Shown: positions 2,649 to 63,764, counted from the stretch's first letter. The stretch: DNA of 64,000 nucleotides from an uncultured Candidatus Marinamargulisbacteria bacterium (GCA_964643725.1 CAZXTL010000004.1:27874-91873), one strand, 5' to 3'. Notes: generated from the letters alone by a model not told the origin. Made by a program: numbers and translations.

Positions 2649-2688
2649 CTACTCGATATATTACAGGAATACAATATAGGAGTAGATA

Positions 2689-4536: not shown

Positions 4537-4611
4537 TGGGTATATCTCTTTAAGTAAGTGGGATTTTTATAAAGTTTGAACGATAAATTAATAACAGATG
4601 AAAGGATAATC

Positions 4612-29618: not shown

Positions 29619-29705
29619 GAAATTATTATACTGTTTATTCGTTGATTTGTTTATATGTTTATTTGTTTAAGAAAGAGTATTTTTAGTTAATATGATTATA
29701 TTTAC

Positions 29706-29790
29706 TGAACCCTCTCCGTCGCGTAAGCAATGGAGAGGGTGGCGATATCGAAATGTTTTACAAGCTCTCGCCTGATTACGCCGGGTGAGG
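29706..29790 (+). repeat. Structured repeat element, copy A (solo): hairpin CCCTCTCC-(14-nt loop)-GGAGAGGG, then GGTGGCGATATCG...TTACGCCGGG
   Basis: Lies between the secF 3' end and the uppP 5' end. The stem sequence differs from copy B, yet pairing is preserved by compensatory changes (CTCTCC/GGAGAG versus CTTCTT/AAGAAG). Confidence 0.7.
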
Positions 29791-29791
29791 T

Positions 29792-30706: not shown

Positions 30707-30716
30707 TTTTAACTCC

Positions 30717-32045
30717 TTATTTAAACCTAATTAGGTTACTTTCTCTTATTTTTGTAATATTAAGACTGCTGAACAAAAAGAATTTTGTTAGCGAAATAGC
30801 AGTAAACATACTGATGATGATACCTATTGATAGGGTAACAGCAAATCCTTTAATAGTTCCAGTGCCAAGCCAGAAAAGTACAAAGGCAGTTAAGAGTGTT
30901 GTAACGTTAGAGTCTACAATAGTAACAATGGCTCTTTGGAATCCACCTTCAATTGCATTTTTAATAGTCTTACCATTACGTAGTTCTTCTTTGTATCTTT
31001 CAAAGATAAGAACGTTAGCGTCAACTGCCATACCTATAGAAAGTATGATACCTGCAAGTCCTGGTAAGGTTAAAGTAACATGTAGCAGTCTAAAAGCTGT
31101 CATAGAAAGGAAGAAATAAAAGATAAGAGATAGGATGGAAATAAATCCTAGAAATTTATAGATAATTAGCATAAATACTGCGACTAAGATAAAACCAATT
31201 ATTCCAGCCTTAATACTTTGATCAATGGATGCTTTTCCTAAGCTAGGTCCAATTTCTTTTTTCTCAATAATGATAACTGGTACTGGTAGTGAGCCAGCTT
31301 TTAATTTAATGACCATATCTTGAACTTCTCTTATTGAGAAAGAACCAGATATCTGTGCTTTCCCTCCAGGGATTGGTCCGTTAATCCTAGGAGCTGAAAT
31401 AACAATTCCATCAAGTAGAATAGCTAATGGTTTTCCCACATTGAGTCTTGTAACATCGGCAAATTTCTTTGTGCCTTCAGCAGTAAATTCTATATTTATA
31501 ATAGGTTTGCCAAATTGGTCTACGCTTGGTCCAGCAAAACTAAGGTCATTACCTGTCATTACTGTTTTTCCAAGGAAGATAGGAGTCTCTTGTACTACGT
31601 TACCGACATTATCTTTTATAGACATTTTGTCTAACCTCATACCTTCGCCAGCAATTATTTTAACTTCTTCGGTGCTTAAGGTTGCGGCATCCTGCGGGGC
31701 AAATTCAGCTTCAACAAATTCTAATAGAGCTGTATCACCAATTAATTTTTCAGCTCTTGTAGGGTCAGTAATTCCAGGAAGCTCAACAACTATTTGTCTT
31801 TTTCCTTTTCTTTGGATAACAGGCTCAGATACTCCTAGTCCATCTATTCTGTTCTGAATAATTGCTAGTGCGCCTAATACCGCGTCATCGTTAACTTTTA
31901 CTTGTTCAGTGTCTTGAGCCTCTAGGACTAGAAGCATCCCACCCTGTAAATCAAGTCCTAGACTGATAGGGATTGTCTTTCCAATAAAGATAATTAAGGC
32001 GATACCAATAACGAGATAAAAGAATTTTAGTTTATCTGTGAACAT
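30717..32045 (-). CDS. secD: Protein translocase subunit SecD (short form)
   Basis: GLDLQGGMLLVLEA motif, a periplasmic domain, and a C-terminal 6-TM SecD/SecF-type region. Synteny tgt-secD-secF. Confidence 0.9.
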   Translation of the reverse strand: MFTDKLKFFYLVIGIALIIFIGKTIPISLGLDLQGGMLLVLEAQDTEQVKVNDDAVLGALAIIQNRIDGLGVSEPVIQRKGKRQIVVELPGITDPTRAEKLIGDTALLEFVEAEFAPQDAATLSTEEVKIIAGEGMRLDKMSIKDNVGNVVQETPIFLGKTVMTGNDLSFAGPSVDQFGKPIINIEFTAEGTKKFADVTRLNVGKPLAILLDGIVISAPRINGPIPGGKAQISGSFSIREVQDMVIKLKAGSLPVPVIIIEKKEIGPSLGKASIDQSIKAGIIGFILVAVFMLIIYKFLGFISILSLIFYFFLSMTAFRLLHVTLTLPGLAGIILSIGMAVDANVLIFERYKEELRNGKTIKNAIEGGFQRAIVTIVDSNVTTLLTAFVLFWLGTGTIKGFAVTLSIGIIISMFTAISLTKFFLFSSLNITKIRESNLIRFK

Positions 32046-32051
32046 TTAAGT

Positions 32052-35508
<3,457 letters not shown>

Positions 35509-35518
<10 letters not shown>

Positions 35519-35545
35519 TGGTTCAATTGTTCATTAGTTCAATCG
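35509..35545. repeat. Left arm of an imperfect inverted repeat (GTTCATTGGTTCAATTGTTCATTAGTTCAATCGTT) spanning the GH57 start codon and the four-helix-bundle gene stop
   Basis: A 13-nt perfect complement (GTTCATTGGTTCA / TGAACCAATGAAC), plus further imperfect GTTCA(A)T-type repeats, to the arm at 36021-36058. Confidence 0.75.
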
Positions 35546-35922
35546 TTAATCTTATTCAGTTGTTTAAGATATTTGATAAAACTATTCACCTTTCTTGATA
35601 ATATATTGATTTGTTCTTCTATTACTATACTATCCTCTTTTTTAATATATCCAAGATTATTAGCTATTATTATTTGTGTTTCTATTTCAGAAAGAGAGCC
35701 AAGAGCAATATATAAATGTTTTAAATACTCCTTATCTGATTGCTTTGCGGCACCTTCAGCAATATTTGATGGTACAGACACACTTGCTCTTTGTATTTGA
35801 GAGCAAAGTGCAAATTTTTCAGACTCAGGAAATTGTTTAGTGATTTTGTAAATAGCTGTAACAAATTCTATAGATTCTTTCCAGATATCTAAATCTTTAT
35901 GTGTTCCCATTTTTTTCTCCAT
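35539..35922 (-). CDS. Four-helix-bundle protein (the family formerly called '23S rRNA intervening sequence protein'). The likely true start is the MGTHKDL Met, 12 nt inside the ORF.
   Basis: Strong family signature read by eye: ...QFPESEKFALCSQIQRASVSVPSNIAEGAAKQSDKEYLKHLYIALGSLSEIETQIIIA..LGYI. Confidence 0.8.
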   Translation of the reverse strand: MEKKMGTHKDLDIWKESIEFVTAIYKITKQFPESEKFALCSQIQRASVSVPSNIAEGAAKQSDKEYLKHLYIALGSLSEIETQIIIANNLGYIKKEDSIVIEEQINILSRKVNSFIKYLKQLNKIND

Positions 35923-36020
35923 TTATAATTTTTAAATAAATAATTGAGTCCTGCAATATTATAGTATATAAATAGCAATTAACTAATAGTTATGCTTTTT
36001 TTAGTTATGATTTAATTTTT

Positions 36021-36058
36021 CCCAATGAACCATTGAACGAGTGAACCAATGAACCGTT
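36021..36058. repeat. Right arm of the inverted repeat (CCCAATGAACCATTGAACGAGTGAACCAATGAACCGTT), abutting the hom stop codon
   Basis: Reverse complement of the left arm. Together the two arms bracket the four-helix-bundle gene and its upstream region (35539-36020). Confidence 0.75.
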
Positions 36059-37307
36059 ATATCCCTACTCTTATAATACTAGCCACGTCTTTGATGCAAG
36101 ACAATGCTTTTATCTTTTCAATGGCTTTGTTTTTAATTCCTTCTTTGATGGAATGTGTAACAATCACTAGTTCTGCATCTTCGTCAGCACCTTTTTGGAT
36201 AGCTTCTTTGATACTGATATTAAGTTTAGCAAAGATACCACTAATTTCTGCAAGTACACCAGGTTTGTCTTCAACGAGTAACCTTATGTAGTACTTGGAG
36301 ACTATTTCTTCTTTAGGTAGTATATTCACTTTTAGCTTTTTCTCTGTAACGTAAGCTGTGCCGTTGATGATATTTAGTATATCTGCCCAAACAGAACCTG
36401 CGGTTGGAATACTTCCAGCTCCACGTCCATAGAACATGCTTTCTCCTGTAGCATCTCCATCTACGTAGATAGCGTTGAATACATCGTTGACCGAAGCAAG
36501 TGGGTGACTGTTTTTTAGAATAACAGGATGTACTCTTAGTTCTAGTCCTTTATCAGTGTTTCTTGCAATGGCTAATAGTTTAATGCTGGCATCAAGGTTT
36601 TTTGCATAATTAATGTCTTTAGCAGATATTTTAGTAATGCCTTCCATTAAAATCTGTTCAATATTTATATCAGCATGAAAAGCTATAGAAGCTAGGATAG
36701 AAAGTTTGTACCTGCTGTCCATACCTTCAACATCTGATGAAGGATCAGCCTCGGCATAACCTAGTTTTTGTGCTTCTTTTAATACAACTGCATAATCAGC
36801 GCCTTCTTTTTGCATCTTGGTAAGGATAAAGTTAGTTGTTCCGTTAAGAATACCAACCATTTCCTTAAAGTTATTTGGTGATAATGAATCTTTTAGGTTA
36901 TTAATGATAGGAATTGCACCACCAACCGAAGCTTCATAAAGTAAGGATACGTTGTTATCTTCAGCTAGCTTAAGTAGATCTTTGCCGTATTTTGCAAGAA
37001 CAAGTTTATTAGCAGTAACAACGTGTTTTTTTGCTTTTAATGCAGATTCAATAATGGTTCTAGCAGGCTCATCTCCACCAATAAGTTCAATTATTATGTT
37101 TATTTCTGGGTCTGCAATAAGTTCTTTGAAGCTGTTAGTTTTTTGAAAAGATGATAGGTCGTAAGGGCATTTGCTAAAGTCTAAATCGCAAATAGTTTTT
37201 AGTTTAAAAGGGGTTTTCGCATGTGAGCTTAATTTGGCAAAATTGCTTTGGTATAAGTGGATAACGCCTGAGCCGATTGTTCCTGTGCCGATTAATCCAA
37301 TGTTCAT
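36057..37307 (-). CDS. hom: Homoserine dehydrogenase
   Basis: N-terminal NAD(P)-binding GLIGTGTIGSGV motif, a central catalytic region, and a C-terminal ACT-like regulatory domain. 416 aa. Confidence 0.9.
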   Translation of the reverse strand: MNIGLIGTGTIGSGVIHLYQSNFAKLSSHAKTPFKLKTICDLDFSKCPYDLSSFQKTNSFKELIADPEINIIIELIGGDEPARTIIESALKAKKHVVTANKLVLAKYGKDLLKLAEDNNVSLLYEASVGGAIPIINNLKDSLSPNNFKEMVGILNGTTNFILTKMQKEGADYAVVLKEAQKLGYAEADPSSDVEGMDSRYKLSILASIAFHADINIEQILMEGITKISAKDINYAKNLDASIKLLAIARNTDKGLELRVHPVILKNSHPLASVNDVFNAIYVDGDATGESMFYGRGAGSIPTAGSVWADILNIINGTAYVTEKKLKVNILPKEEIVSKYYIRLLVEDKPGVLAEISGIFAKLNISIKEAIQKGADEDAELVIVTHSIKEGIKNKAIEKIKALSCIKDVASIIRVGI

Positions 37308-37365: not shown

Positions 37366-38598
37366 TTAGCTGGTATGTTTTTTTAAGTCACTTATGTCTG
37401 TTGTTCTTAATTCTGTAAAATTACTAATAAAAACAGCTAGAGGAATCCTAAGAATTCCATCACGTGTGTCATGTGGATTTATAAGAACTATTTCGTCAGT
37501 TTCTTCTTGATATGATTGAACAAAGTAAGCGTGTTTTGGGTAAATTCGAGTATTTGGTGGTTTAATAGTACTACCAGCAACCATTAATTGATTACTTATA
37601 AAAGCTGAATAGTCTTTTATTCTAGACCTCAGCTTGTCAATGTCTTTAGAGTATATGTTTTGTGATTTTTTACCTAATAATATTTCTATCGCACTTTTCA
37701 TTGAACCAAGAGTTGTTAGTTCCATTGTGTTTGGTTCATAAGAGTCAGTATCTTCGTCATCAAAGGACCCCAAGTCAGACCTTCGTGCTTCTATTTCTAC
37801 TATGGCTTTCCCAAAAGTTCTTTCCATAATTAGGTCGCCGATTCTGCCTTTGTTAAGCTTATTGTTGATGCTAAGTAGGTCTTCAATATTTATTGTTGTA
37901 GTAATTTTCCCCATATTGCCATTTTTATCAGAATGTCTTGGGTCGTAGTAAGTTACTGACCAAGTAAATGGCGAGATTTCCTCAATCATTTTGGGAATTA
38001 CTTTTTGTGCAATGTATGTTCTTAATATTCCTTCGTAGACTGCTAAAAAATAACAATTTCCAACAATTCCTTGTTTTATAGCACCTTCTTGTAATCCCCT
38101 AGGAAATAGATGATGGATATTATGAAATGAAGGGTTCCATTCCATTAATTTGGACATTGATACATCTTTATATTTATTGTCATTATCCCAAGCAACGGTG
38201 TATTTGTTGTTTTCTCTGGCTTTTATGGTCCCTTCATGAAAACTTTGTGTTGTTTTACTGAAAACTCTAATTTTACTTTGTCCAATTCTAAAAGGGTTAT
38301 GGTATTCAAGTTCTAGTGAATGAAACCATTTTTTCCCTTTGGGAGTATCAATAAGATGCATTCCGTCTTCTGTTTTGAGTATTTCTTTAGGAATATACTT
38401 GCCATTATCCTTAATAAATACCGTATCTCCAGCATAGAACGTTCTTTCAGATATTTTTCTTGATATAGCAATAACTTTCTTCTTCATACTTACTATTAAG
38501 CCCAGAAAACAAGACAAATAAACATTTCGGAAATCCATCCGCTCAAATGTACTTAAGGCTTCATAAGGTAGAAACTTGTGAGCACCTTCCTTTATCAA
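37366..38598 (-). CDS. Calpain-like (clan CA, C2-type) cysteine peptidase homologue. The start is uncertain: the track start is TTG, and Met21 or Met38 are alternatives.
   Basis: QGIVGNCYFLAV matches the calpain active-site Cys block QGxLGDCWLLAA (Cys182, codon 38053-38055). KHAYFV matches GHAYSV (His356). VLINPHD matches RLRNPWG (Asn374). Cys-His-Asn spacing of 174/18 aa compares with ~157/24 aa in calpain. Confidence 0.6.
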   Translation of the reverse strand: MIKEGAHKFLPYEALSTFERMDFRNVYLSCFLGLIVSMKKKVIAISRKISERTFYAGDTVFIKDNGKYIPKEILKTEDGMHLIDTPKGKKWFHSLELEYHNPFRIGQSKIRVFSKTTQSFHEGTIKARENNKYTVAWDNDNKYKDVSMSKLMEWNPSFHNIHHLFPRGLQEGAIKQGIVGNCYFLAVYEGILRTYIAQKVIPKMIEEISPFTWSVTYYDPRHSDKNGNMGKITTTINIEDLLSINNKLNKGRIGDLIMERTFGKAIVEIEARRSDLGSFDDEDTDSYEPNTMELTTLGSMKSAIEILLGKKSQNIYSKDIDKLRSRIKDYSAFISNQLMVAGSTIKPPNTRIYPKHAYFVQSYQEETDEIVLINPHDTRDGILRIPLAVFISNFTELRTTDISDLKKHTS

Positions 38599-39238: not shown

Positions 39239-42200
39239 ATGGTTGACCCAGTTAGTATTAAATTGTCAGATATTAAATTCGAAACAGGCATTCGAAAGGA
39301 TGCTAGTTTGGTTTTTGTAGTTTTGCAAAAAAATGATAAATTACCAGACGGTTTAACAGCAAAAAATATAGAAACAGCATTAATTAAATTAAAAAATACA
39401 AATGAGTCAGCTTATAGATTATTAATGCAAGCAGTAACTGCTCATACCAATGACAACCTTAATGCTTCGCAAAATGAACTTGGTAAAATAGCTGAGGCTT
39501 TAAAATCATTCGATGTGTCTAAATTTACTTTAGATGATAAAAAAGTAAAGTTAACTATAGATGCTGAATTAATTGATGGTATTGATGTTTCAGGGGGAAC
39601 TGTTCAGTCTGACGCAAAGTTGGCTGAAGTAACTGGTGATTACGATGCTTTTGCGAAAGAGATGCTTAATATTCAACCACCACCAAACGCACCACCAAAA
39701 GTTGAAGCTGAAGAGAAGATTATAAGTCCTGCCAAGAAGAAAATTGCCTTAAGTGACTTATTTGAAAAGGCATTCAAGGGCACACTGACGGTTGCAGATA
39801 TAGATAAAACTCCATTGCCAAAAGATGTAGAAGATATTTTTGTTTCAATTCAAGGCGAAACAAATACTGAAATTTCAGCTGAACAAAAAGTAGCTATACT
39901 TAAAGAACTTGGGAGCCAAGGATTCTTAGGAACTGCTGATGATTATAAAAATGATAAGAGCGGTGTTTTTTCTGAACGTGGGACTGAGTTAGGAAATAAA
40001 CCAACAATTGCTTTTGCAACTGAGTTTTTTAATAGGCCTGGTACAAAACTGCAAGTAAATCAATCGGATTTACAAGCTGCTGTGCATTCTCTTTGTCGGT
40101 CTTTTGAGATAAATAAGAAGTTGGGTAGGGGTATTGGCGAGTTTGCTGTTTATGCAAAAGAATTTATTAGTGCGTCTGCTTATTCCGTCACCAAGATTAG
40201 TAAAACTACAGAGGGAGCAGCAACAAATCTTTCTGAGAAATTAAGCGGAAGTGGACGACCTGGTTTAAATTCAGGGCAATTAAAAGGTTTAGCTACTGCA
40301 TATGCTGGAGCTACTTTTAATCAGCAAACTAATTTGCCAATAAGTAATGGTAGTGGGGCACAGATAACCATAGATCCAAAGGATGATAAGAAAGTAGTGT
40401 TGTCTGTGAAGGTTGGTGACGCTTTTAAGCCAGTAATGAGCTTTGCTAAAGCTGATTTGGATCAGATTGTTGAAGGGACGAAAGATGAACGGGAAGGAAA
40501 AGATTTATGGTTCTTGAATTTCTTGGAGTTTATGACTCAGGAAAAAGATGACAAGGTTCAAACGTGGGGAAACAAGAAGATAACGGATAAAACATATATT
40601 AAAGATGGAAAAACTATTGAGATAAAGGACGTTAATAAGCCATTTCAAGAGGCAGTTAATGGGATAACTGGTGGAGAAGTAGAGTCAATAGGTTTTAAGG
40701 ATTCTCAAGATAAAGAAACACAAATAAGTTGTCTTAAATTAAATGGATTTACTATGTCCGGCATAGAAAGAGGGAGTAATGGCATTGTAAGGGATATGAC
40801 GGTAAATGTAGAAACTAAGCAATTTTTTGTTATTGCAAGAGGTGAGGATAAAGGTCCTTTTAAGTTTTATTTAGCTGAAAAGAGTCCAGCAGGAGGAATA
40901 CAACCTTCTACATTGCCTAATGGAAATAATAAATTAACTTTCACTATAGGTGGTGTGAGTGTGAGTAAAGAAGTTAATGTTGGGGCTTCGGCTGATACAT
41001 CAAAACCTGTAACAGATCCATCAAGAAAGACACCACTAGAATTAGGATCACCTCCTGCACTTAGATCTGGTGTTGCTATGCCAAAAATAGTTCCTGGAAT
41101 GAGTATTAAGTTAGATGAAGTATATGGAGAGTCAAAAGATTTAGCATATAGTTTAGATATTGGTTCTAAAAGTATTTATCCTGTAAGTAATGGAAGAATT
41201 ATTATTCCAGAAGTTGGACAGAGTTTGACTAGTGACCCAAAAGGAGAAACGTTAACCGTTAATGAATCACAACTTGTTATTTCTAGAATTGCAAATCAAA
41301 AATTAGTTCCTAATACAAATACAACTCCAATTAAAATTATTGATCCAGGTAGCTTAACATTCGAGGATTTAAAGGCACTTATTCTTTCTCCACTTGGGAC
41401 AGAGGAGAATATTTCAATATATTTATCTGGCAATAATAGTATGATAACTAAAGGAAATATTGGAGAAATTGTTGGTTTACTAAAGGGTAAACCACAAATT
41501 TTGGCAAAGTTGCTTGAATGGCTAAGCACAGCTCCTGCAATACCTCCCACCTCTCCATCATTAAATTTGGTGAAAATCGAGAACAATATAGTAGTAGACG
41601 TTGTTGCGAACTCTGGAATAGCTGATGGCGTAAAAGGAGCAATTAATAAATTAACACCAGATGAGATTTCTGCTGTTTTTAAAAATGGTAGCGACAATCC
41701 TTCGGTTATTCTTTTAGTTAAGGGATGGTTTGATAATGCAACTGACCCTCAGAAGAGCGCTTTCATTAATATATCCCATCAATTATTAGGTAAGTTAAAA
41801 ATAGATTCAAAAGTGTTGGCTGGATTAGCAAAGGAAGATCCTTCACTGGCTTCTCTTAGTGGTATGGAAGATGATACTGCAAAGATAGTTATTTCTGGAT
41901 TATTAAAGGAAACAACACCACCAGCTGATTACTCAAAACTTATCAAGTTGATTAAATCTGATACAGGTAGATTTACAGGGTTACTACAGCAGTTACAGAA
42001 AGAACAACCTGATTTAAAAGTAAGTTTAAATTGTACGAAAGCATTAGTTGCTGGTCTTAGTGCTGATGAATTAAAAGTAGAAAAAGATGGTTCCACAACA
42101 TTAGCGTCATTAATTTTAAAGGATTTAAAGAGTGCAGATGTTATATCTATATCAAAAGACCTTGATAATGCTAAATTAACAGTAGTTTTAATTGTAGCTA

Positions 42201-42682
42201 AAGAGGGTAGAGCAGAGGTAATGAAGGAAATTTTAGATGCTGGAAGTGATAAGAAATATTCAAAGTTTTTAGCGTTTTATAAAGCTGATCCTAAAAATGC
42301 TGTACTTGTTTTGTCTATGATAAAAGACGATAAAGGTGCAATGGGTGCGTTAGAGAATGCTTTAAAAAACATTGATTCGGCATATTTGAAGGATTTACTT
42401 GACGTAAATTCGAAGTCTATTGCTGAGTTGTTTAGTTTAGTAAAGGATAAGAAGGAAGTAATGGAAAAACTTAAAAAGAATATAGCTGAGCTTAGTAAAG
42501 TTTCAGCAAATCATTTGTTATTGATAAGTTTCCTAAAAGAGATGAAGACTGCTGACTATGATAAAAGTTTTGTGGCTAGCTTAAATAGTTTTCTTGATTT
42601 AACCTTTAAAGCTGAAATTAAAAAAATATCAGCTGTTGGAGCAAGTGGTCTTTTGGGGGCGATTAGATCGTTACAATCATAG
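39239..42682 (+). CDS. Large hypothetical protein (1147 aa), the first gene of the second giant-gene cluster
   Basis: A 3.4-kb ORF with AGGTGA 6 nt upstream of the ATG and a heptamer tandem repeat immediately upstream. No recognisable domain. Confidence 0.75.
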   Translation: MVDPVSIKLSDIKFETGIRKDASLVFVVLQKNDKLPDGLTAKNIETALIKLKNTNESAYRLLMQAVTAHTNDNLNASQNELGKIAEALKSFDVSKFTLDDKKVKLTIDAELIDGIDVSGGTVQSDAKLAEVTGDYDAFAKEMLNIQPPPNAPPKVEAEEKIISPAKKKIALSDLFEKAFKGTLTVADIDKTPLPKDVEDIFVSIQGETNTEISAEQKVAILKELGSQGFLGTADDYKNDKSGVFSERGTELGNKPTIAFATEFFNRPGTKLQVNQSDLQAAVHSLCRSFEINKKLGRGIGEFAVYAKEFISASAYSVTKISKTTEGAATNLSEKLSGSGRPGLNSGQLKGLATAYAGATFNQQTNLPISNGSGAQITIDPKDDKKVVLSVKVGDAFKPVMSFAKADLDQIVEGTKDEREGKDLWFLNFLEFMTQEKDDKVQTWGNKKITDKTYIKDGKTIEIKDVNKPFQEAVNGITGGEVESIGFKDSQDKETQISCLKLNGFTMSGIERGSNGIVRDMTVNVETKQFFVIARGEDKGPFKFYLAEKSPAGGIQPSTLPNGNNKLTFTIGGVSVSKEVNVGASADTSKPVTDPSRKTPLELGSPPALRSGVAMPKIVPGMSIKLDEVYGESKDLAYSLDIGSKSIYPVSNGRIIIPEVGQSLTSDPKGETLTVNESQLVISRIANQKLVPNTNTTPIKIIDPGSLTFEDLKALILSPLGTEENISIYLSGNNSMITKGNIGEIVGLLKGKPQILAKLLEWLSTAPAIPPTSPSLNLVKIENNIVVDVVANSGIADGVKGAINKLTPDEISAVFKNGSDNPSVILLVKGWFDNATDPQKSAFINISHQLLGKLKIDSKVLAGLAKEDPSLASLSGMEDDTAKIVISGLLKETTPPADYSKLIKLIKSDTGRFTGLLQQLQKEQPDLKVSLNCTKALVAGLSADELKVEKDGSTTLASLILKDLKSADVISISKDLDNAKLTVVLIVAKEGRAEVMKEILDAGSDKKYSKFLAFYKADPKNAVLVLSMIKDDKGAMGALENALKNIDSAYLKDLLDVNSKSIAELFSLVKDKKEVMEKLKKNIAELSKVSANHLLLISFLKEMKTADYDKSFVASLNSFLDLTFKAEIKKISAVGASGLLGAIRSLQS

Positions 42683-42755: not shown

Positions 42756-42851
42756 AATGCTATTTTCGTGTATCTTAAAATAAGAGGGAATTTGTGAGAA
42801 ATATTTCGATATATTTATGTGAAGGATTTATAAGATGAGGAGTTGTTTAGT

Positions 42852-48800: not shown

Positions 48801-51800
48801 CGATCAACACAGCTGATGGAGTTTTTAACTAAAGAATATCCTGGCAAAAAACAGCTTCATTCTTTGTTTATGGAAAGAGGAGAAACCTTAGTTAAGTTAA
48901 GACAGTATATTAATGAATTGGCAGAAAAGGGAGTTGTGAGTACTCTTTCTGATAATGTTGCAGGAGGTGTAGTTTCAAGTACCTTTAGAGAAGCTCTTTA
49001 TGGAAATATGGATGCTCCACAAAAGATGTATGGAGTTGAGTTACAGAAGAAAATTTTCGGTGATAATATTTTTACTGCAACACATAGAGAGATTATTGAA
49101 CAGATAGATGCAAATCCTGACAAAGGTCTTGTTCTTAGTGCTGTCAGGTATTTATTAAATACTTATGATGTTCAGTTGTTGCGTATGAGAATTACCCATG
49201 GTCCAGATGGGTTGTTGGAACAGATGGACAGAGACCTTGAACAATTAGGTAAAAAACCAATAGAAGATCAGAGCACAGCGGAAAGATTGACTGGTTGGGG
49301 ATTATCAGATTATGCAGCCTTTAATGGGAGCAAAGTTAAACTTAATCCATTAAGGTTGCTTGGTTGGGTTGGTACTCCTGGACATATGGCGAAAGCTCGA
49401 AAGGAATTAAATAAATATAGTGGATGGCAAGTACTTTACGAGCTGCAGAAAAAAGTAGCAACAACGGAAGTTATTAGAAACGCAGTATCCAAGATAGATA
49501 CCAGCAATCAGTCAGCTCATGTGCAAAAACAAATAAAAGAAATATTAGAAGCAACCGCGAGTGTTTCTGCCACTGCTGAAGAAGTTAAGCGTGCGATTTA
49601 TTTAGGTTTGACGAAGTATCCTGTCTCTAATGGGAAACCAGGCAGTTTTGAAGCATATGTTAGAGCTGGTATTTCCGAAGTTAGTTTTCAGGATGGCCAA
49701 TATGTGCCTAAAGAGCTTAATGTAGCTACAGCAAAGCCTTTATTTGAGCAATTTGTGGCTTTAGAGAATTATATGAAACAATCTGGAGCAGTTATTCGTG
49801 AATCCAAGGATAATACTTTTGAGGTAGTTACTAAAGAACAAAACGCGGCAGGAGCTTCAATTGACAAAGTCGAAAGTTTTACTAGTAAATCTGCAGCAGA
49901 ATTGTCCATACAAGAAAAAAACGTATTGTTTCGGTTTGATGAAAGCAATAAACAATGGGAAATGCGATTTACAGAAGATAGAGCAGACGGGGCTCCTACT
50001 AGATGGCTTCCAGTTGTATCTGTAACTTATGGTGATCCCAGAGCTATTCGTCCAGTAGTTGAGTTCAAGAGTAATCCAGGTGCTCCAGTAAGCGGTGTCG
50101 CAATTCTTATTCCAAGTGGTTTTGATATGGAGAACCCTTTACATAAAAATTCTTTTGATATGCTTAGTAATACCGTTAGGACAAGCACTTATGAGTTGGA
50201 TGCAGGTCACAAAAAGGCAATAGTACAGGTAACAAGTGGTGCTGATGATGAATCAAAGGTTAAGCCTTTAATAGATATTTCTGAGAAAGTTATTGAAAAT
50301 GCTAATCAAGAAAGAAGGCAAATTGCTATTAATGGAACTAATGAAATAGCTTTAGAAAATCCTTTAAAACTTTTTAATACTACGGATATTAAAGTACTTA
50401 GTGGTGTCTTTAATTATGAAGACTATTGTAAATTCATAAATTGGTTAGCTACGGAAGTTAAGGGTGGGGTAAATGGTAAGAAGTTAAGTGAATATGTCCA
50501 AACATATCTTTCAACAGAAAAGTATGCTGATGTTTCTGCTGTTGATTATAGAAAAGCAGCTGATTTGTTGCATGAAATAACAGGTAAATATATTGGTCAG
50601 GTAGATGCCGAAGAGTTAAAGAAGGGTCATAGTAATATTGCCATTAAGAAAATGTTAGAAGGAAAAAGAACAGAGATAGATGAATATATTGACACGAAAA
50701 CTCAAGTTTTAAATCTTTCAGATAAAGAAAGAGGTCTTTTTAAGAGTTTTGTTGACACTAAAATTGAAATATATATGGAAGCAAAACTTGAGACACAAAG
50801 AATGGAAAGCATCTTGTTTAATGAGTTGAAAGCTCGTTTTGCAGCAGCAGGCATAGATGGTGTTAAAGCTGATGGAGAAAAATATACTGAAGATGGGATT
50901 AGATACCTGTTGTCTATAAAGGGAGACAAGGCAAAAGCAGTAAAAGAGGAATTGTTTAAAGAAAAACAAGCAGCAGTTGATACATATTTTAATGGGTTAA
51001 AAAGTAATCCTGATTATTTGAAAAACGGAGTCTTAGATATTAGTAAGCTAAGAAATAATCCTGAATATCAAAAAATGACAAGATTGGCGATACAGACTTG
51101 GGCTTTGGCAATGAATTCAAAGTCCGGATTTAAACCATTTTTTAATCAGGCAATGACCAGTTATCTATCAATGATGCAAAGTGATCTTGTTGTAAATATT
51201 AATCCAGGTGGTGGAAAAACTGATCTTTTGACTGGTATGGCCTATATGCGATATTTGCTTGGATATAAGACTGTAATTGGCGTATCAAACAGTACCGATC
51301 AAAGAGCAGGAGTAAATAGTACAGAGGCGATTTTTAAGAAGCTTGGTATGCGTTCTGGTAGTTATTTTGAGGGTTCAACTGAGGGCGCAAGAAAAGTTTT
51401 TGCAGACAATAATGTCATATATGTTACTAACTCTGCTTTTATGTTTAGGATATTAAAAGACAGATTGGATCCTAGCAACAGTGTTTTGCCCCATAATGCT
51501 AATGAGATAATTACTTATGCAATCGATGAAGCTGATAAAAATTTTGTTTTTGATGGTTCTAATCCTGCGATTATGAGTAGTGGTTCAGATAGGCATTTGA
51601 TAGGTAGAGACAGAGAAATGTTCAAACATGCTGTTCAGGCTATTGAAGAGTTTAAAGAGAAGTGTAAAGGGGATGAATATTTTCATAATGTTAGTGGAGA
51701 AGTTAGCTTTACTACTAAGGGAGAGTTAGCATTTCAATCAATTGTTGATGAGCATTTAGCAAATGTTTCTCCTGAAGATAAGGCATGGTTTAAGGAAAGG

Positions 51801-54800
51801 ATTATAAAACTTCAGAAACGACTTCTTAATGTTGCGTTAAATGTTCACTTGGGACAAGAATACGAGATTATTGGTAAGAAAGTTAGGCTAATTAATATGG
51901 GGATGAGAAGAGTTGACTGGAATAGTGTTCAGCAAGAATCTCATCAGATAGTAGAAGCAATGCATATGTTTGGTAGTAGAAAAACATTATATGCCTTAGA
52001 TAATATATCTGAGAGTTCCTTTTCTAGTTCTTCTGTTACCGCTAGACAAACTGCAGAAGATAATGTTGCCGCTATAGCAGCTGTTTCAGGTACGAATATT
52101 GATATAGAAAACTTATATGCAAGGATGCTTTATCAACAGATACCAATGGAGGATCACGTAGCTCAGACACTAAAAATATCTGGTGAATTTGTTTGTTTAG
52201 ATAGAAATACTCAATTACAGAATGTTGTTATCACTGCTGTTAATAAGTTGTTAGAAGGTAAATCGGTAGTAATCCATATTCCAATCGGAAGGACAACACC
52301 AGCCAATAATCAATTAACTATTGATATGGCTCAAAAACAAACACAGTTATTATTTGCATATATTGATTGTGTTATAAAAGGGGGAGACCCTACTAAAAAT
52401 GAAGCCTTGAAAAAACTTATAAGTAAATATCATGCAGAATATAAAGAGTTGTATAAGATTGATTTTAATATGTTTAGTATGGGGGCTTTAACAGAAATAT
52501 ACACAAAATTATGTGGAGAAGATGAAGCTAGTTTTAAGGGGAAATATATGCATTCTTTAGCTTTTAATGCTGCTCTTGGTGAGAAAGGGTTTGGAATAGG
52601 ATTAATTAAAGAGTTCACTGAGGGTGCGCCAGAAGACAAAGAACTTAAAAATTTTAGATTGAAAGGTTCCTTGAGATTATTATTTACAGCTAACTCAAAT
52701 AGGGCAGTCGACTTTCAGCCGCGTTCGGATGAAGCCTATAAAAAAATGCGTCAGCGATATGGTTTTGGTGATTGTGTTTTTAGTGGCATTATGACTGAGT
52801 ATAAAAGAGACATGGCTTTTTGGATACAAGAAGCCTTTAGGTTGGGACGTGCAGCTGGTCCAAGCAGAGAGACTGGAGAAATAGTTGTTATTTGTTCAGC
52901 TCAAGATAAGACTCTTGCACAAGAAGCTACAGCAGTAAATTTATTAAGATCACTTTGTAGTTTAAGTAACGAAAATCCAGTAATAATGATGAATGCTGGT
53001 GGTTTTCCTTCAAATGCTAGATATCTTATTCCTTATGATGATTTTTCGAAAAAACTGGAGCCAAACGAAAAAACATTATTGAATTCTTTATTGGACAGTG
53101 CATTTGATGAAAAAGGCGACTTAAGAATTAATTCTTTGAAAAAGTCAGGAGTAGACGTAAAGGCGATAGAGTTACTATATAAATATTTTTTTAAGAATGG
53201 CAATGTGTTAAGTCCGGATGCAGAGAAGAATATTGTTGAAATGCTAGTTAATAGAGGAGTTCTTAAAGCTGGAGATAAACTTGAAGCAGGTATGCCAGAA
53301 GAAAATAAACAGTTAATTATTAGAACCATATTGCTTGATAATATGCGAAGGTCAGATTTTGAGGAATTAGCTAAAGCACACTTCTGTAAGCAAGAAGCAG
53401 ATAAAGTATTGTCAGGTAATTATTTGGATTTGATTAAGGGTTTAAATGGTTTGGACAAAAAATTTGAGCAACTATTTGATGAAAGCTTAATGAGAAAAGT
53501 GAAAGAAGATAGCTATGTGAAAAGTTTAGAAGCGTTTTTTAAGGATAAGATTAGGCCGACGAATGAAGCAGATATAGTGCTTTTTTTGAAAGAAACAGGG
53601 ATTATGACAATTACAGATTTAACAAGAATTAAGGATGACCCTGAAAATATAAGTAAGATTTTAAAAATGGTTGGTTATATGCGTCTAACCCCAGAGGCAA
53701 GAAAAGAAATGGTGGTGGATATTTTAAATGGCAGTAGTAGTCCTTTGTTTATTGAGAAGGGATTAACTGATATAGGTTTTAGGGTTATTGAACAAAAAGC
53801 GCAAAGGTATGAATCAGCAAGATTTTTAGAAAGCATAGGTGCTTTTAATAAAAAGCAGGCTGCTTTGTATATTAAATATGGGTTAACGGATGAGGGAGTA
53901 CCTCAAAACATTAAAAATGACAGTAATTTTGTAAAAATGAGAAAGGTTGCCAGTGAAGCTAGTTTAGAGGTTCAGAATATGATTAGGAATAATATTCAGA
54001 ACCAACATCGTGAAGGGGTTATGAGTACTAGAGATAATCAACAACAGCAAACTGACCGGCAGTTATCAGTAACAAAAGCATTGGATATTATCAGAAAAGG
54101 TAGAACAGCTTGGAAAACTAGTAGTAAGCTTTATGAGTCAAGAGGGTTAGTAGGATTGAAGGATGTTAAGGATATGCCTACTTTGCTTACTATAATGTTT
54201 GAAACGGCTTTAGGTAGTTATGTAGATGAATTTAAGTCAACTTTGCCTGCAGATAAACAAGCGAATTGGTATTCTGATAAAGAAACTGTAAAGAAATTTT
54301 ATGATTACTTTAAAACTAAAACAGGAATTGATATTACATTTGATCAGACTAATTCAAAACTTGTTTCTGAACAGCATTTCTCATCAACAATAGTACAGTC
54401 TTTTTATTCTCAATTACTTAATAAAGATACCTTTGATACAAAAACTATTGCCCGTATAGTTAAGAATAAGCTGTCTTTATACAACGGGTGGGTTTCTTCA
54501 ATGGAGGAATATTTGAAGAGCCAAGATGAAACTTCAAGATTATTAGGAGCAAATTCTGCAAGTATAAGTGACCTTCGTAATAAGGCTCCTGTTCTGCTTC
54601 TTCAAGAGGTTGCCTGTTCCTTATTTGAAGGAAGAACTATAAAGAAAAACGTAGGGTTATGGGTTGCGAATAAGCTAGGTCAGATAACATTTGTTAAAAG
54701 AATGGTTGACTCAGGCATGGTTTTTGGAAAACAGAGGGCTGATGGTTTAGATGTTGTAGATGCAACAGTAAAAGAGAAAACACCACTTGCTGGTGAACTA

Positions 54801-57800: not shown

Positions 57801-60800
57801 TTAACTATAAGTGATTCTTCTGGAGTAGTTTCATCTGCTGGTTTTTCTTATATGAATGTAGGAGTTATGACTGATACTGGAGATAAAGTCCTTAAGGAGT
57901 TAGAAAGATTAGGATATGTTAAGAAAACCGTTAGAGGTTATGAAATGATGGATAAATTTCGGCAAGACCTAGCTGAAGAGAAATTCAACGTAAATTCTTT
58001 GTTAGAAACGATTTATGGGGACATGATAGTGTCTGTATTGGATGCTAATAAATGGGTATGCACTATGCCAAAGTTATTAGAGAAGTTTACTTCTGAAGAG
58101 ATAAATAAATTAATAGAAATGGGATATATAAGTAAAACTGGAGCTACAGTATCTAGCATCGAAGGAAAAGCAATATTTGTTCCTCAATACATTTTTAATC
58201 AAAAGCTTTTTGCTAATAGGTTGATTGAGGCGAAAGTTATTACTGATATTACTGAGTCCGGTCATAAGATTGATAAAAAAGCATTAGAGGACAATCCAGA
58301 TGTATTTCTTTTGGGAGGAAGCGATTTTAATAATAAGTTTATAGAATTATATGGAGAACTTCAGCAAGGATTAAGTGGTCGGATGGTAAAATATTTATCA
58401 GAAAAATACAATGAGAAAGTTTTTTTACAAGAAACTTCTTCTGTTTGGGCAAGAAGTGTTGAGCAAAAACAATTAGAATCTAAATATGTAGAAGTAGAAC
58501 CAGACAATAAATATGTATACACATATTTAACAGAACAAAGAGCAATGTATAGATATATTGCATATTCAGTTGTTAATTTTGCTAAGGCTGATAGTTTTTT
58601 TAAGGATATTGATGCTCAAACTCTTATGCAATATTTTTCAATGGGGAAAGAAGAGCTTTCTGAAGAGTTGTCGAAAGGTAAATTTGATAAAAGTATTTCT
58701 GAGAAAATAATGTCTTTAAGAAACTTAATGGAAGAGTTATCTTTTGAAGCAGGTAAAGAGTTGGGTAAAATCAAGAGAAGCACCCATGAAGTTGATAAAG
58801 TTTTACAAACAATTAATGATATAATTTTTCAAAAATCCAAAGGTAATATAAGTAATGCTTTAAGTCTTGATGTAATTAAAAGTGATGCGAAACAGCATTA
58901 TTTAAGAGGGAAAATGTTTAAAGAACAGTTTGTCCCTAGGTATCATACTCCCACTGTTGAGCAAATAAAGAAGTTTTTGTCTGAAAAGGTTCCTGCAAAT
59001 GTTTTAGCTACTGAGTCGTATAGTAATATTACTGATGAGAAAGAAATGTTCTCATTTTTAGAAAAACAGTTAGATTCTATCTATGATTTTGGAGAGTATT
59101 TTTCAACAAAACAATTAAAATCCGTTGATACATTTCTTTATGCAGTTGCCAGATTTCACAAAGAAAAAGAACTTTTAGATGGATATAAAGAAAAGGATAA
59201 GCCCATACGAATATACGTTTATTTTAGGCAAGAAATAGAAGATATTAAAAGAACTAATATTGAAGAATTCGCAGGATATGCTCGTCAAATGACTGGTTCT
59301 GATTATGGTGTTGGAATGGGTATAGCTCAATCAGCTGCTTCCTTGTCTGCATTTATGACTACAAATAGAAAAATGCAACAGTTTACCGACAAGATTATGA
59401 GGGGACAAATAACAAAGATGGGGCAACTAGCACCTGAGGTTTTGACTACTACTATATTTAGAGGGAAAGATATTGGGGTTAAACATATTTTTAACGGAAG
59501 AAATCTTGCAGGACATTATATCCCAATGGGTATATCATCTTTAGCTTGTATTGGTGCAGGCCTTGCATTGCAGCTGACATATGAGCAGGAATGGGCTAGA
59601 CCTTATATGGATGTTGTAATGAGAGATACACTAGCTCCTTTTGCTTCAGAGTTTGCCTTTATGTACCCAGTTATGCCAAGTACTTGGGTAACTAAAATAA
59701 TAAAACAACAAGGATATGACATTACAACTTTAGATCATATTGATGAAGGATGGGGTAAAAGATTTGCTTTGTTAGGAATAGATACAGGCTTAGCTGCTGC
59801 TGATTTTTATTTGCTTTCACAGGCAAAGAAAGGTGCAATGAAATTAGGGGTATATCAAAATAATAGTGTTTTTAATCTTACTCCAACACAAAAATTAGCA
59901 TCAGAGACTTTGGATCGAATTTATAAGCAATCAAGCGCTGTTGATTCGAAAGTTGCTTCACCGAGTTTAAAGATATTAACTGACTCACAACAAAAGTTAA
60001 TAAATCAAATGCAAGATGGATTTTGTGAGAAAGCATATGTATTGGAAGACGGAAATACTATTAGATATCGGGTTAAAGGTGGTAAATTTCAAGATATACC
60101 TTTTGAAAAAGCAGAAAAAGCAATTGCCGAATATTCAGAAAAATATGCTACTGCAAGCTTAGATGACATTATTCGTGATGCAGGGCAAGGGATTTTTTTA
60201 GATATTAAGATAACAGGCCCAGATAAGTATAAGATTACACTTGCAAATGGTGTTACCAAGGAATTTACTACTGAAGAGTTAAAGGCTGCCCTTAAGAATA
60301 AGCAAGGTGATTTATCTAATATTTTTTTCAAAAGAGATAAAACTGGAAAAGTAACAGGTATGAATATGAAAGCAATAGGTGCTTTAACTTCTATGTTGGC
60401 TTTAAAAGGAATTATAGTTGCAGCACTTAAGGCAGGCAAGTCTGATTCAGAAATATCTGATGTTTTAAAGGAAGCGATTAGTAGTACTTCACGTGACTTA
60501 GGACAAGTTGCAGCGTTTACAGCTACTGAAACAATCCTTACAAAGCTCGGAGTTAAAGGTGTTTTGCCTGGTTCAGGAATAATAGCTGGAGGAGCTGGAA
60601 AGGCAGCTTTGGTTTCTATTTCAACTGCGACAGTTATTGCAGCTATTATAGTTGAGACAGGTAACTATATATATGAAAATTGGGATGAAATTAAATATGG
60701 AGCTGATGCTAATGATTTCGCAAAGAGTCAAGCAAGATTAGGCATAGCATTCACAGCTGGTAAAGCAGCTGCTACAACCTATGCTGCTCTTTTTGCTGCA

Positions 60801-63764
60801 GGGGCGGCTGCTAGCCTAGGAACTGGAGGAGCTGCTCTTATTGGGATCGCTGCAGCGGTTGCAGTTTATGGGGCAATTGAATTGATACAGTGGGGCTTAT
60901 ATGAGAAAACTGGTTGGAGAGAGTCAGATGATAGAAAAGATATGATAAGTGAATTTTCTTATAGAACTAGTAATAAAACACAATTATCTTTTAGTTATGG
61001 TGTTAATGATGATAGAAAATATAGTAGATCTAGTGGAAGTTCTGTTATTAAAGAAGAGTATCCTGGAGTAAAAATATTAAAGAACTTGTTTAATCAAGTT
61101 TCTGAAGGTGTCAATGTTTGGGCAATTATGAAAGAGTTAAATGTTAGTAAAGTTGATATTGAGGATTTGTATGATTTAGACCCAAATTTATTTATTCAAT
61201 TATATATTAAAGTTCAAGAACTAAAAAAGAGAGGACTGATAAAGGAAGATGCCTTTAGTTCTCCATCAACTATTCAAATAAAGTTAAATAAGATAACTAG
61301 AATAGTAGACGGTTTCGCTGAGTATAAGGTTCTTCTGAATATTAATGGGGTGAAAGATCCCATAGAAGTAACTTATAAACGTCCACTTAAAGGAGATTAT
61401 TCTGATGCTCAGGTAGATGATTCAACTTACAAAGAGATTCTTGCTTCTGGTCAGATTGTTATTAATGGGAATAATGTTGTGAAAAGTATCCCAAAGGGAG
61501 GATGGCTGTATGAAAATTTTCTTTGGGAAAAAGGTGCTCCACAGCAGAGTGGTATTGAGTTTATGTATTATTTGCTAAGAGCTAATGAAAAACATGAAGG
61601 TAAAGATGTTTTGCGTAATAAATTAAAAACATTAGGTGGTGGTGATGAGTTTAGTGCTTTTTTTGATGAAGTAATAAACATTATTGATGGGAATGAAAAA
61701 GAAGGTTTTGTTAGTTTTTTAAGTAAAACTAGTTTTTGGGCTGGAAATTCTGTAAATAAAGATAATTATTTTAAGTTAGTAAATTTTTTGTATTTGATTT
61801 ATGTTTCAGATAAGAAAAAGAATGGCGGTTTATTTGAGAATAAGGATTTAAATTTATATAACGAATCAGATTTTCGTAATGCATTTGTTGAGTTTAATAA
61901 AACTCTAGGGAGTAGAAGAATTGAATCAGCTGAAGACTTGAAGGGATTAACTAAAATGAGTTTTGTTAATTATGTAGAGGAATTATTGAAGATGGAGATG
62001 GGGGCAATAAATACTGAAGATTTCTTTAAAGGACAAATTGTTGTTCTAAATGGGATATTTAATACAAGGGCTCGTTTTTCAAATGCTCAGTCTACTATTT
62101 CCTGCCATACTCCCGTTAATCGTTCTTATGTAAAAGAAACACCTGACCCTCAAATAGCAGGATTGAAGGTGTTGCTTGATAAAGATGATGTTAAGTCCTT
62201 TATGATAGATCATGAATTTATTATTCCATATCCAGGAATAGAAGGTGAATATATGGTAAATCCTAAAAAGTCTAAGGAAGAGTTTAAAGGTCTATTTATG
62301 AAGAGATTTTTTCCGTTAAGTTCTTTTATACCTTTAGAGTTTAGACATGAGTCTCCTGATGAAATGTTAAATTATTTATCACGACTTAAGTCGCCAGAGA
62401 CAGCGCCGAATCATACAAAATATGAGTCTCCATGGTTTGTTCCAGAACAATCATTAAGGGGATTGCGAAGTTCTGAGGACAGTGTATTTTTTGCAAGGGG
62501 ATTAAGGAAGGCATTAGTAGAAGTTGGACTTCTTGATAGTAACTTTTGTATAAAAAGTGACATCGATTACAATAGTGTTGGTGAAGAGTATTTTAGAGAT
62601 AAACTTAAGGGGACAAATTATTCTGAGTTATATAGAAGGATAGCTAATTTTTTTATTAATTATAATAATTTAGTGCCAAATGTGCTAAGGCCAGAGCTTA
62701 ATTCTGAAATAATCAAGTTGTATCTTCCTTCTATTTCAGGCGAAGAAGCAAGGAAATCATATGATTTTTTAGTTAAAGCAGGTGTTTTGGAATTAGTTGT
62801 AGATGGAAATAAAGTTAATCATTATTTTGTTAAAGATATCTCTAAGTTTGATGATGTTGATGTTATGGATGCAGCCGTACTTAAATATAAAAATCAATGG
62901 TATCAATTACTTTTAAGAACTAAAAGAGATGCATTAACAGAACTAGAAGTTTCTTCTATTAATTTACCTTCTTTACAGAATGTATCAAGTTCTTGGCAAT
63001 ATGAAAATATTGAGTATGTTAATCGGTTAGTAGGTTTGTTTGGTAGAGGTCAAACTTCTGTTGCTCCAGAAGTTAATAAAGCAATTAGTGCTGATAAATC
63101 TATAAATGAAGTTACAGAAGTAGTTAAAAATTCATTAGAGGGTAGGAGAACTGCCTTTCAGTCTGGTCAGCAATTCAGATTAGCATATTTTGAGCAAGTA
63201 AGTGCTAAGAATAGAAAAAAAGAAGCTGGAGAAATAACAGGTGGGCTTAGTTCAACAGCAATCATTACAGATTTTCGAAATAATTTAGGAAGACAATATT
63301 ATGGTTCTGATGGGAAAGTTTATTTGACTAAGGTTTTTACAGAATATTTAGACCCGAATCAAAGAAAACGGTTTGCGGATTTACTTGAAAAGACGTACTC
63401 AGTCAAAATGGAATCTTTGACTCAAGAACAGATGATTGCAAAATATATGGAGTATCGACAGAATAGGTTTAGACCGAATATGGGTCAGATTAGAGTGCAG
63501 AGTATTCCTTGGGATAACTTTGAGCAGTATTTGCCTAGCATAATTGACAAGACTGCTTTTTTTGAAAGGTTTTTAGTTGAAGAGAAATATCGAGAATTGG
63601 AGGAGAAGTATGGTGGTGCACTTACAATAGACACTCTTTCCCCAGAGCAAAGAAGTTTATTAGAGGTTTATATGAATACTAATCATAAAGGTCAAAGGCA
63701 AAGTTATAATGGTTTGATAACTCCAGCAATTCTGGAGCAAATTTATCAGGATTTTATTAAATAA
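42852..63764 (+). CDS. Giant protein (~6970 aa) with an embedded SecA-like motor ATPase region. The ORF track starts at TTG 42843, but ATG 42852 with GAGGAG 9 nt upstream is preferred.
   Basis: A 20.9-kb uninterrupted ORF. Residues ~2745-3360 align by eye to SecA NBD1, the PPXD-like segment and NBD2 (see the separate feature). An HEKGH motif lies at 55416-55430. A Gly/Ala-rich hydrophobic segment lies near the C-terminus (nt ~60360-60900). The N-terminus looks beta-rich. Confidence 0.85.
   Translation: [6970 protein letters not shown]
51080..52920 (+). other. SecA-type ATPase motor region (NBD1, PPXD-like insertion, NBD2) embedded in giant ORF8
   Basis: [45 protein letters not shown] aligns to SecA ...[41 protein letters not shown] (Walker A). 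[13 protein letters not shown] aligns to [31 protein letters not shown] aligns to [41 protein letters not shown] aligns to [23 protein letters not shown] (DEAD/Walker B). [35 protein letters not shown] aligns to [53 protein letters not shown] aligns to [39 protein letters not shown] aligns to LRGRSGRQGDAGSSRFYLS (motif VI region). Confidence 0.7.

Follow-up and report, generated by a model that had tools for sequence, protein, structure and literature searches.

Introduction

Giant proteins with internal SecA domains have been reported from Omnitrophota and some Actinobacteriota (West-Roberts et al. 2023, 10.1101/2023.11.21.568195). These giants combine many transmembrane helices with divergent SecA DEAD-helicase and preprotein-binding domains and lack the scaffold and wing of SecA. 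Their SecA domains group together on long branches, separate from housekeeping SecA, and the authors considered that adjacent transmembrane regions may serve as anchors and that the domains may export the giant protein itself. Margulisbacteria were named in the same study as one of the phyla with many very large genes, and the domains of these genes were not described. A 20-protein architecture cluster labelled by PF07517 has been presented elsewhere (Nielsen & Lui 2026, 10.64898/2026.06.07.730766), and the Margulisbacteria proteins in a survey of huge proteins received no COG assignment. Here we describe a giant gene of Margulisbacteria that codes for a SecA-like motor module in the middle of a protein of ~7,000 amino acids (aa). 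The gene lies in a 64,000-nucleotide stretch of DNA from an uncultured Candidatus Marinamargulisbacteria bacterium (GCA_964643725.1, CAZXTL010000004.1:27874-91873), which was analysed as a whole and is termed the window below; coordinates are counted from its first letter.

The original prediction for this region, made from the DNA without database searches, had regarded the architecture as undescribed, which does not hold in view of the SecA modules already reported by West-Roberts et al. The giant protein of the window is a further case of such a module, and its novelty lies in the phylum, the smaller size, the fixed syntenic context and the position of the motor upstream of the membrane anchor. 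Like the giants of Omnitrophota and Actinobacteriota, the protein has a divergent SecA_DEAD domain and a preprotein cross-linking domain (PPXD) within a very long open reading frame (ORF), it lacks scaffold and wing, it has transmembrane helices in the same polypeptide (here predicted from hydropathy, and fewer than in the Omnitrophota examples), and it shares the scarcity or absence of other domains, the fast divergence and the speculated role in self-export. Unlike these giants, it belongs to a Margulisbacteria host, it has ~7,000 aa and is thus smaller than the proteins of 10,000-147,000 aa at the centre of those studies (size class >=10,000-30,000 aa), it contains no glycosyl-hydrolase, dockerin, peptidase or methyltransferase domains, and its family is syntenic with fixed neighbours. 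The order of the parts is also different, as the motor lies ~2,200 aa upstream of the transmembrane cluster, whereas giants of at least the dockerin type are described with the transmembrane anchors first and the SecA domains after them. The Omnitrophota modules were compared by their published description. Our exhaustive HMMER search returned only Margulisbacteria-type relatives, followed by canonical SecA; the two groups may have originated independently, or their kinship may be too remote to detect.

A SecA-derived motor within a giant protein

The giant ORF is listed at 42843-63764 (+) with 6973 aa and a TTG start. The ATG at 42852, which is preceded by a GAGGAG ribosome-binding site, is more likely to be the true start and gives an ORF of ~6,970 aa (42852-63764, +). 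Residues are numbered by the listed ORF, with residue n starting at 42843+3(n-1), and the interval flagged originally (51080-52920) thus corresponds to residues 2747-3360. Together with its conserved C-terminal extension, the SecA-like motor module occupies 51063-53045 (+), residues ~2741-3401, and is the best-conserved segment of the protein. As had been proposed, the motor is buried deep inside a single ORF, preceded by ~2,740 aa and followed by ~3,570 aa, and the domain order of the first nucleotide-binding domain (NBD1), PPXD-like insertion and second nucleotide-binding domain (NBD2) is found within this one continuous reading frame.

Sequence, profile and structure comparisons all lead to SecA. 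Pfam SecA_DEAD (PF07517) matches residues ~2734-2941 of the giant protein with 54.2 bits (cut-off 24.6; E=1.7e-14), and NCBIfam gives partial secA and SecA2 matches, with TIGR00963 reaching 34 bits against its equivalog cut-off of 800 bits. A phmmer comparison with all PDB chains returned SecA and SecA2 exclusively (best 2.3e-6). For profile comparisons, eight modules of the family (alignment A1) and eight SecAs (alignment A2) were aligned, and hhalign relates the two alignments with a probability of 99.8% (E=4.4e-28) over 552 columns. With the A1 profile, ten PDB matches fell below E=1e-4, every one of them a SecA- or SecA2-containing chain, and the best one was E. coli SecA (2e-18), matched over its residues 82-459, i.e. 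NBD1, PPXD and the start of NBD2. An AlphaFold2 (AF2) model of the module that used A1 with its 8 sequences as alignment reached a predicted local distance difference test (pLDDT) score of 68.4, and AF2 on the single sequence gave an unusable model (pLDDT 36). When the A1-based model was compared with the PDB by Foldseek, the top 36 matches were SecA or SecA2, with E-values down to 1.2e-20, and other superfamily 2 (SF2) helicases reached ~1e-8. The similarity is far above chance and SecA-specific, at an identity of the module to SecA of 11-17%. We are therefore confident that the flagged region is a SecA-derived motor, and the original prediction was right in this central point.

A word-indexed homologue search with the module sequence gave no match. 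With the family profile, for which 8,000 word-filtered candidates were scored, ten matches were obtained, all SecA-type and mostly of ~776 aa, and the one named protein among the top word-filtered profile matches is an accessory SecA2. The members of the family themselves came up in the exhaustive HMMER search only.

The same comparisons bear on the alternative that the module is a nucleic-acid-dependent SF2 helicase or translocase that acts on DNA or RNA and merely resembles SecA. Other SF2 helicases are indeed found by Foldseek, but at 1e-8 as compared to 1e-20 for SecA, and all significant sequence and profile matches are SecA, the best non-SecA protein in the comparison of the A1 profile with the PDB being eIF4A (E=0.18). 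Moreover, the SecA-specific PPXD insertion is present, as are the ...NP.I.S and GMRR...H..vEA.H blocks, PF01043 is matched in relatives, and nowhere in the protein was an accessory domain for nucleic-acid binding detected, which makes a helicase acting on nucleic acids improbable.

In comparison with canonical SecA (E. coli, B. subtilis; PDB 2fsf, 1tf5, 3bxz), the module has the NBD1-PPXD-NBD2 order, Walker A and B, the motifs Ia, Ib, III, V and VI, the SecA-specific segment that follows Walker B and the block that closes the PPXD, and canonical SecA is its top match by structure as well as by sequence. The differences are the very low identity, the embedding in a 7,000-aa protein instead of a free-standing protein of 800-1,000 aa, a helical insertion of ~95 aa in NBD2, and the lack of the scaffold, the two-helix finger, the wing and the C-terminal Zn/SecB-binding tail. 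The reference SecA2 ATPases are those of Mycobacterium, Clostridioides and the Gram-positive accessory Sec systems (PDB 4uaq, 6sxh); the SecA2-type matches of our searches (P0018-P0026) are free-standing, have ~770-780 aa and contain PF07516, and the module is neither free-standing nor does it contain PF07516.

Architecture of the module

The first part of NBD1 (51063-51584, +) is delimited by Pfam SecA_DEAD, the hhalign columns and the motif table. It contains, all on the + strand, Walker A (NINPGGGKT, 51195-51224), motif Ia (VIGVSNSTDQRAG, 51273-51311), motif Ib (VIYVTNSAFMFRILKDRL, 51414-51467), and Walker B together with the segment that corresponds to the 'PLIIS' of SecA (YAIDEADKNFVFDGSNPAIMSSG, 51516-51584, with YAIDEADKNF...NPAIMSSG), for which the SecA counterpart is DEVDSILIDEARTPLIISG. 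Between motifs II and III follows the PPXD-like insertion (51585-52076, +), which is supported by hhalign, by the profile comparison with the PDB and by the AF2 model. Both alignments pass through the PPXD (SecA residues ~220-375), and AF2 predicts two beta-hairpins, ..VSGEVSFTTKG.. and ..YEIIGKKVRLIN.., that are placed as in SecA. The block ...MRRVDWNSVQQESHQIVEAMHMFG (51861-51974, +), which had been flagged from the sequence, is present, and the PPXD closing block GMRRVDWNSVQQESHQIVEAMH aligns with SecA GRR.SDGLHQA.EAKE. Among the Pfam families that had been expected, SecA_DEAD was found in the window protein as described above, SecA_PP_bind (PF01043) was matched by only three of eight family members (best 7.8e-6), and SecA_SW by none. 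Motif III (AAVSGTNID, 52077-52103, +) aligns with SecA GMTGTA.

The NBD2-like second RecA-like domain (52140-52898, +; residues ~3100-3352) has six predicted strands and is interrupted by a family-specific four-helix insertion of ~95 aa (52305-52580, +). Its first half was aligned by hhalign in the comparison of A1 with A2, and a search of the PDB with the NBD2 region alone gave no match. Motif V (LRLLFTANSNRAVDFQ, 52671-52718, +) includes LLFTANSNRAVDF, which has the T-x4-R-x2-D spacing of SecA TNMAGRGTD, and motif VI (WIQEAFRLGRAAGPSRETG, 52821-52898, +), which contains FRLGRAAG, reads IQEAFRLGRAAG. We place QEAFRLGR of motif VI on SecA QLRGRSGR, or on the general SF2 motif QxxGRxGR, and in this register both RxGR arginines are kept. 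The exchange of GRQGD for GPSRE, which the original prediction had noted in the arginine-finger region, is the result of a shifted register. We infer our register for motifs V and VI from three observations: the AF2 model has the canonical strand and helix order of a RecA-like domain 2, GIMTEYKRDMAFWIQEAFRLGR aligns to SecA without gaps, and the general SF2 consensus QxxGRxGR is matched. The assignment of the C-terminal half of NBD2 is suggested by the structure model, by how the motifs are spaced and by conservation within the family. All blocks that had been named before (Walker A, Ia, Ib, DEAD/Walker B, PPXD closing block, NBD2 start and motif VI) lie where they had been placed.

What follows NBD2 in SecA is missing. 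Neither the window protein nor the module stretches from eight family members gave a match to PF07516 (scaffold/wing; no match at E<=1) or PF02810 (SEC-C), and the AF2 model, at low confidence in this part, has no long helix after NBD2. The helical scaffold, the two-helix finger, the wing and the C-terminal tail of SecA are absent from the module, which for scaffold and wing agrees with the original prediction.

Conservation of the ATPase motifs

The motif table comprises ten members, and each count refers to those family members (8-10) whose sequence spans the position. Walker A is conserved as GxGKT in 8/8 and the DE of Walker B in 9/9, and S[GA]T (motif III), NRAV[D/N] (motif V) and QE..RL[G/A]R (motif VI) are each found in 10/10, at an overall identity among family members of 27-33%. 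Columns Q641, E642, R645, R648, N598, R599, S394 and T396 of the MAFFT alignment are invariant. When the giant protein was aligned along its entire length with its three longest homologues, identity peaked at residues 2700-3400, where it reaches 27-36% as compared to a background of ~15%. As the catalytic motifs are invariant or nearly so and the module coincides with the identity maximum, this is the signature of a working enzyme. Judged from these alignments, the ATPase motifs are under clear purifying selection, and the module is probably an active ATPase.

It had been suggested that the domain might be a degenerate, non-hydrolysing scaffold, i.e. a pseudo-ATPase in which the SecA fold is kept for structural reasons. 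One could refer here to the very low identity to SecA, to the replacement of the first arginine and the QGD of SecA motif VI (LRGRSGRQGD), and to the loss of the motif V glycines, with TNMAGRGTD changed to TANSNRAVD. The reading of GPSRE, however, came from the shifted register, no other region of the protein is conserved as well as the module, and GxGKT, DE, motif III, the R..D/N of motif V and the Q..R.GR/AR of motif VI are conserved in all members that cover them. A degenerate scaffold is thus unlikely, and this part of the original prediction is not supported.

The remainder of the giant protein

In the whole giant protein, SecA_DEAD is the single significant Pfam domain, and beyond the SecA module no domain was found by Pfam, NCBIfam or PHROGs. 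PADLOC, applied to a 1,500-aa stretch around the module, gave nothing beyond the SecA module, and the flanking stretches had no phmmer match in the PDB. The protein has no N-terminal signal peptide. In its C-terminal part, ~2,200 residues downstream of the motor, Kyte-Doolittle scans revealed a hydrophobic cluster of 4-6 Gly/Ala-rich putative transmembrane helices (59520-60887, +; residues ~5560-6015), and similar hydrophobic stretches are predicted for the last quarter of the chain in the relatives P0002, P0003 and P0005. A second family-conserved block lies downstream of the motor at 53790-54362 (+; residues ~3650-3840). An origin of the giant protein from a phage, a defence system or a polyvalent protein was rejected in view of the chromosomal context with its housekeeping genes.

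Relatives and conserved neighbourhood

The family is rare, and every organism-named member comes from Margulisbacteria. In an exhaustive HMMER scan, 1.84 billion representative proteins yielded just seven real relatives (E=1e-91 to 3e-29, 27-33% identity), and the remaining matches were weak (E=1.7e-7 to 9e-4) and, as far as they were scanned with Pfam, belonged to ordinary SecA proteins or fragments. Among 185,579 GTDB species genomes, only two relatives were found, both in 'uncultured Candidatus Marinamargulisbacteria' metagenome-assembled genomes (MAGs), and a scan of JGI metagenomes added only two further loci, in one of which (L012) the module is part of an ORF that overruns the 22-kb locus. 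Ten relatives are known, and five have complete ORFs (4,907-7,185 aa). P0002 (MDD4526477.1) and P0004 (MDD5455776.1) are listed by NCBI as 'hypothetical protein [Candidatus Margulisbacteria bacterium]', and the Tgt of the window has its best named match in Candidatus Margulisbacteria (62% identity). An Omnitrophota host, assumed at first from the literature, was rejected in favour of Margulisbacteria on the basis of these matches. Other giants with an internal SecA module, which the original prediction had proposed to look for, do exist in the form of four complete relatives of 5,313-7,185 aa, and all named ones belong to Margulisbacteria. P0002, P0003 and P0005 (6,304-7,185 aa) are collinear with the giant protein throughout, and P0004 (5,313 aa) is collinear over residues ~1208-4241.

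The giant gene has a conserved partner directly upstream, a 1,147-aa ORF without known domain (39239-42682, +). This ORF shares 44% identity with a 1,001-aa ORF upstream of P0003 (locus L010) and 27% with a 1,087-aa ORF upstream of P0002 (locus L011). The two homologues share also the wider neighbourhood of the giant gene: in L011 (GCA_028706105.1), the order is tgt, GH57, hom, the 1,087-aa ORF, the 7,185-aa giant, and then ORFs of 125, 558 and 489 aa, and L010 has the same core neighbourhood. The three ORFs after the giant gene (L010 24008-27581, L011 31732-35337; 117-125, 558 and 486-489 aa) have no known domains, and between L010 and L011 the 558-aa and 486-489-aa proteins are much more similar at their N-termini than the giant proteins are. 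The window ends at 64000 with a new gene beginning at ~63909, and counterparts of the downstream trio, if present, would extend past this end.

In two Marinamargulisbacteria MAGs, the gene looks shortened relative to that of the window. In L005 (2166-9221), the ORF begins inside the PPXD, no Walker A region was found upstream, and the N-terminal half of the module is missing, and in L004 (2014-16737) a 4,907-aa ORF ends before the equivalent of the transmembrane cluster. These truncations could be split genes, pseudogenes or assembly problems.

As the sequence is of metagenomic origin, one may ask whether the giant ORF is an artefact of chimeric assembly or of run-together genes, with the motor not being part of one 7,000-aa polypeptide. 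Fragmentary relatives (P0001, P0006 and P0007) and the truncations in L005 and L004 could be taken as hints in that direction. Against this stand the reading frame itself, which is open without interruption for 20.9 kb at 33% GC, and the four independent assemblies in which the protein is complete (5,313-7,185 aa) and carries the module at ~2,350-3,440, two of them with the same flanking genes. An artefact is therefore extremely unlikely. After translation, the giant protein could conceivably be cleaved into pieces, and peptidases have been discussed as possibly cleaving giant proteins (West-Roberts et al. 2023, 10.1101/2023.11.21.568195).

Genomic context in the window

The window is a low-GC (~33%) stretch of a bacterial chromosome with five very long ORFs on the + strand (2,867, 2,255, 2,949, 1,147 and 6,973 aa). 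These ORFs (4576-28823 and 39239-63764, +) fill ~76% of the 64-kb window, they have no significant Pfam domain except for the SecA module and no detectable mutual similarity, and neither internal repeats nor paralogy were detected among the giant ORFs. As genomes of the lineage have been reported at 0.5-2 Mb (PMC6784892), the five ORFs represent a large share of the coding capacity. Several of the giant ORFs that neighbour the SecA-bearing one have no signal peptide. The 2,867-aa ORF (4576-13179, +) has strongly hydrophobic helix clusters at residues ~2105-2228 and ~2609-2633 and may therefore be another membrane-anchored giant protein; such clusters are not found in the 2,255-aa and 2,949-aa ORFs. 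The ORFs at 13207-19974 and 19974-28823 share one base, a hint at translational coupling.

Between the giant-gene arrays lies a housekeeping block on the minus strand (28848-37307, -) with uppP/bacA, secF, secD, tgt, GH57/DUF3536 and hom (homoserine dehydrogenase). A more distant relative (L008, Tgt 65% identical) has the block hom, GH57, tgt, secD, secF and bacA flanked by ordinary genes (ftsK, amylase, radical SAM/YcaO), with no giant genes beside it, and the giant genes of the window thus resemble additions that are specific to the lineage and surround a stable core. In the loci of the relatives, the other giant ORFs of the window did not turn up. While secD and secF are present, no secA or secY was seen in the 64-kb window.

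Some further observations concern the flanks. A 410-aa ORF between hom and the giant-gene pair (37366-38598, -) has a sub-threshold match to a calpain-family cysteine protease (PF00648, E=2e-4, 20.8 bits with a cut-off of 23.8). At the left end, a radical SAM protein (74-1702, +) is overlapped by a 356-aa ORF with a TTG start (1578-2648, +) and a weak match to the phosphorylase superfamily; this ORF probably starts further downstream than listed. Along the long + strand ORFs, GC skew is strongly positive (+0.19 to +0.36), and it is near zero over the minus-strand housekeeping block, the coding strand of the giant genes being markedly richer in G than in C. No tRNA or Rfam matches of use for taxonomy were found.

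Possible function of the module

The interpretation that we prefer, with some reserve, is that a SecA-type SF2 motor in a protein of ~7,000 aa with predicted membrane anchors serves as ATP-driven clamp or translocation motor for polypeptides. An actual role in polypeptide translocation or export, for which the proposal of West-Roberts et al. is a precedent, is conceivable, although we can propose this only tentatively. Mechanistically, the motor would reside on the cytoplasmic face and would be covalently tethered to the membrane via the C-terminal transmembrane helices of its own polypeptide, and this covalent tether would replace the scaffold-mediated docking of SecA. The ATP-driven opening and closing of the PPXD/NBD2 clamp would grip and move unfolded polypeptide, which could be segments of the own chain or neighbouring giant proteins that lack signal peptides. 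The substrate would then be passed to or through a membrane channel, which could be SecYEG or be formed by the own helices.

Several points weigh against such a polypeptide motor. The scaffold and the two-helix finger, by which SecA docks on SecY and pushes the substrate, are absent, and the canonical SecA mechanism therefore cannot run unchanged. The transmembrane helices of the giant protein and its relatives have been called by hydropathy alone. In case of the PPXD, the window protein itself has no match to PF01043 SecA_PP_bind. In case of NBD2, its C-terminal half taken alone does not reach significance by sequence in hhalign, which prefers to place NRAVDVQ on SecA RRIDNQL and hence another register, and neither the window protein nor the module stretches of the family match PF21090 (P-loop_SecA). 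The AF2 model, based on an 8-sequence alignment, is weakest exactly at the motif V/VI loops, where the pLDDT is <50.

A different use of the same motor would be that of an accessory export motor that acts in trans, similar to SecA2, with the giant polypeptide being mainly a membrane-anchored platform. Cargo candidates would be the ~1,000-1,150-aa partner, the small downstream proteins, or other giants without signal peptides. The conserved flanks would fit to this, namely the upstream ORF of 1,001-1,147 aa and, in the relatives, the downstream ORFs of 117-125, 558 and 486-489 aa, as would the presence of several neighbouring giant ORFs that lack signal peptides. The named top match among the ten SecA-type matches of the word-filtered search (8,000 candidates) is an accessory SecA2. 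However, SecA2 is not consistently favoured over SecA1, E. coli SecA being the best match in the PDB, and the other giant ORFs of the window were not found in the loci of the relatives. In accessory Sec systems, SecA2 is encoded together with SecY2/Asp partners, and no accessory SecY2/Asp-type gene is found in the window. On balance, we regard a motor acting in trans as unlikely.

The Margulisbacteria family could even represent an independently evolved, self-contained autotranslocator, in which a covalent tether formed by its own transmembrane helices would take the place of scaffold-mediated SecY docking. Without the canonical SecA cycle, such a protein would thread thousands of residues of its own signal-peptide-less chain, or of co-encoded giants, through the membrane. 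This is a rather speculative scenario, and we regard it as unlikely.

Implications for giant-protein export

It is an open question how bacteria with very small genomes export or assemble proteins that lack signal peptides and have thousands or even tens of thousands of residues. The recurrence of a SecA-derived motor inside giant proteins is the main clue so far, and the window adds to this pattern Margulisbacteria, a lineage that is sister to Cyanobacteria and has animal-associated symbionts among its members. The self-export hypothesis rests on domain annotation, and the module of ~700 aa is a realistic target for experiments. Should the family indeed be autotranslocating, its protein of ~7,000 aa, with one recognisable domain and a fixed set of neighbouring genes, would be the smallest and most tractable model of giant-protein export.

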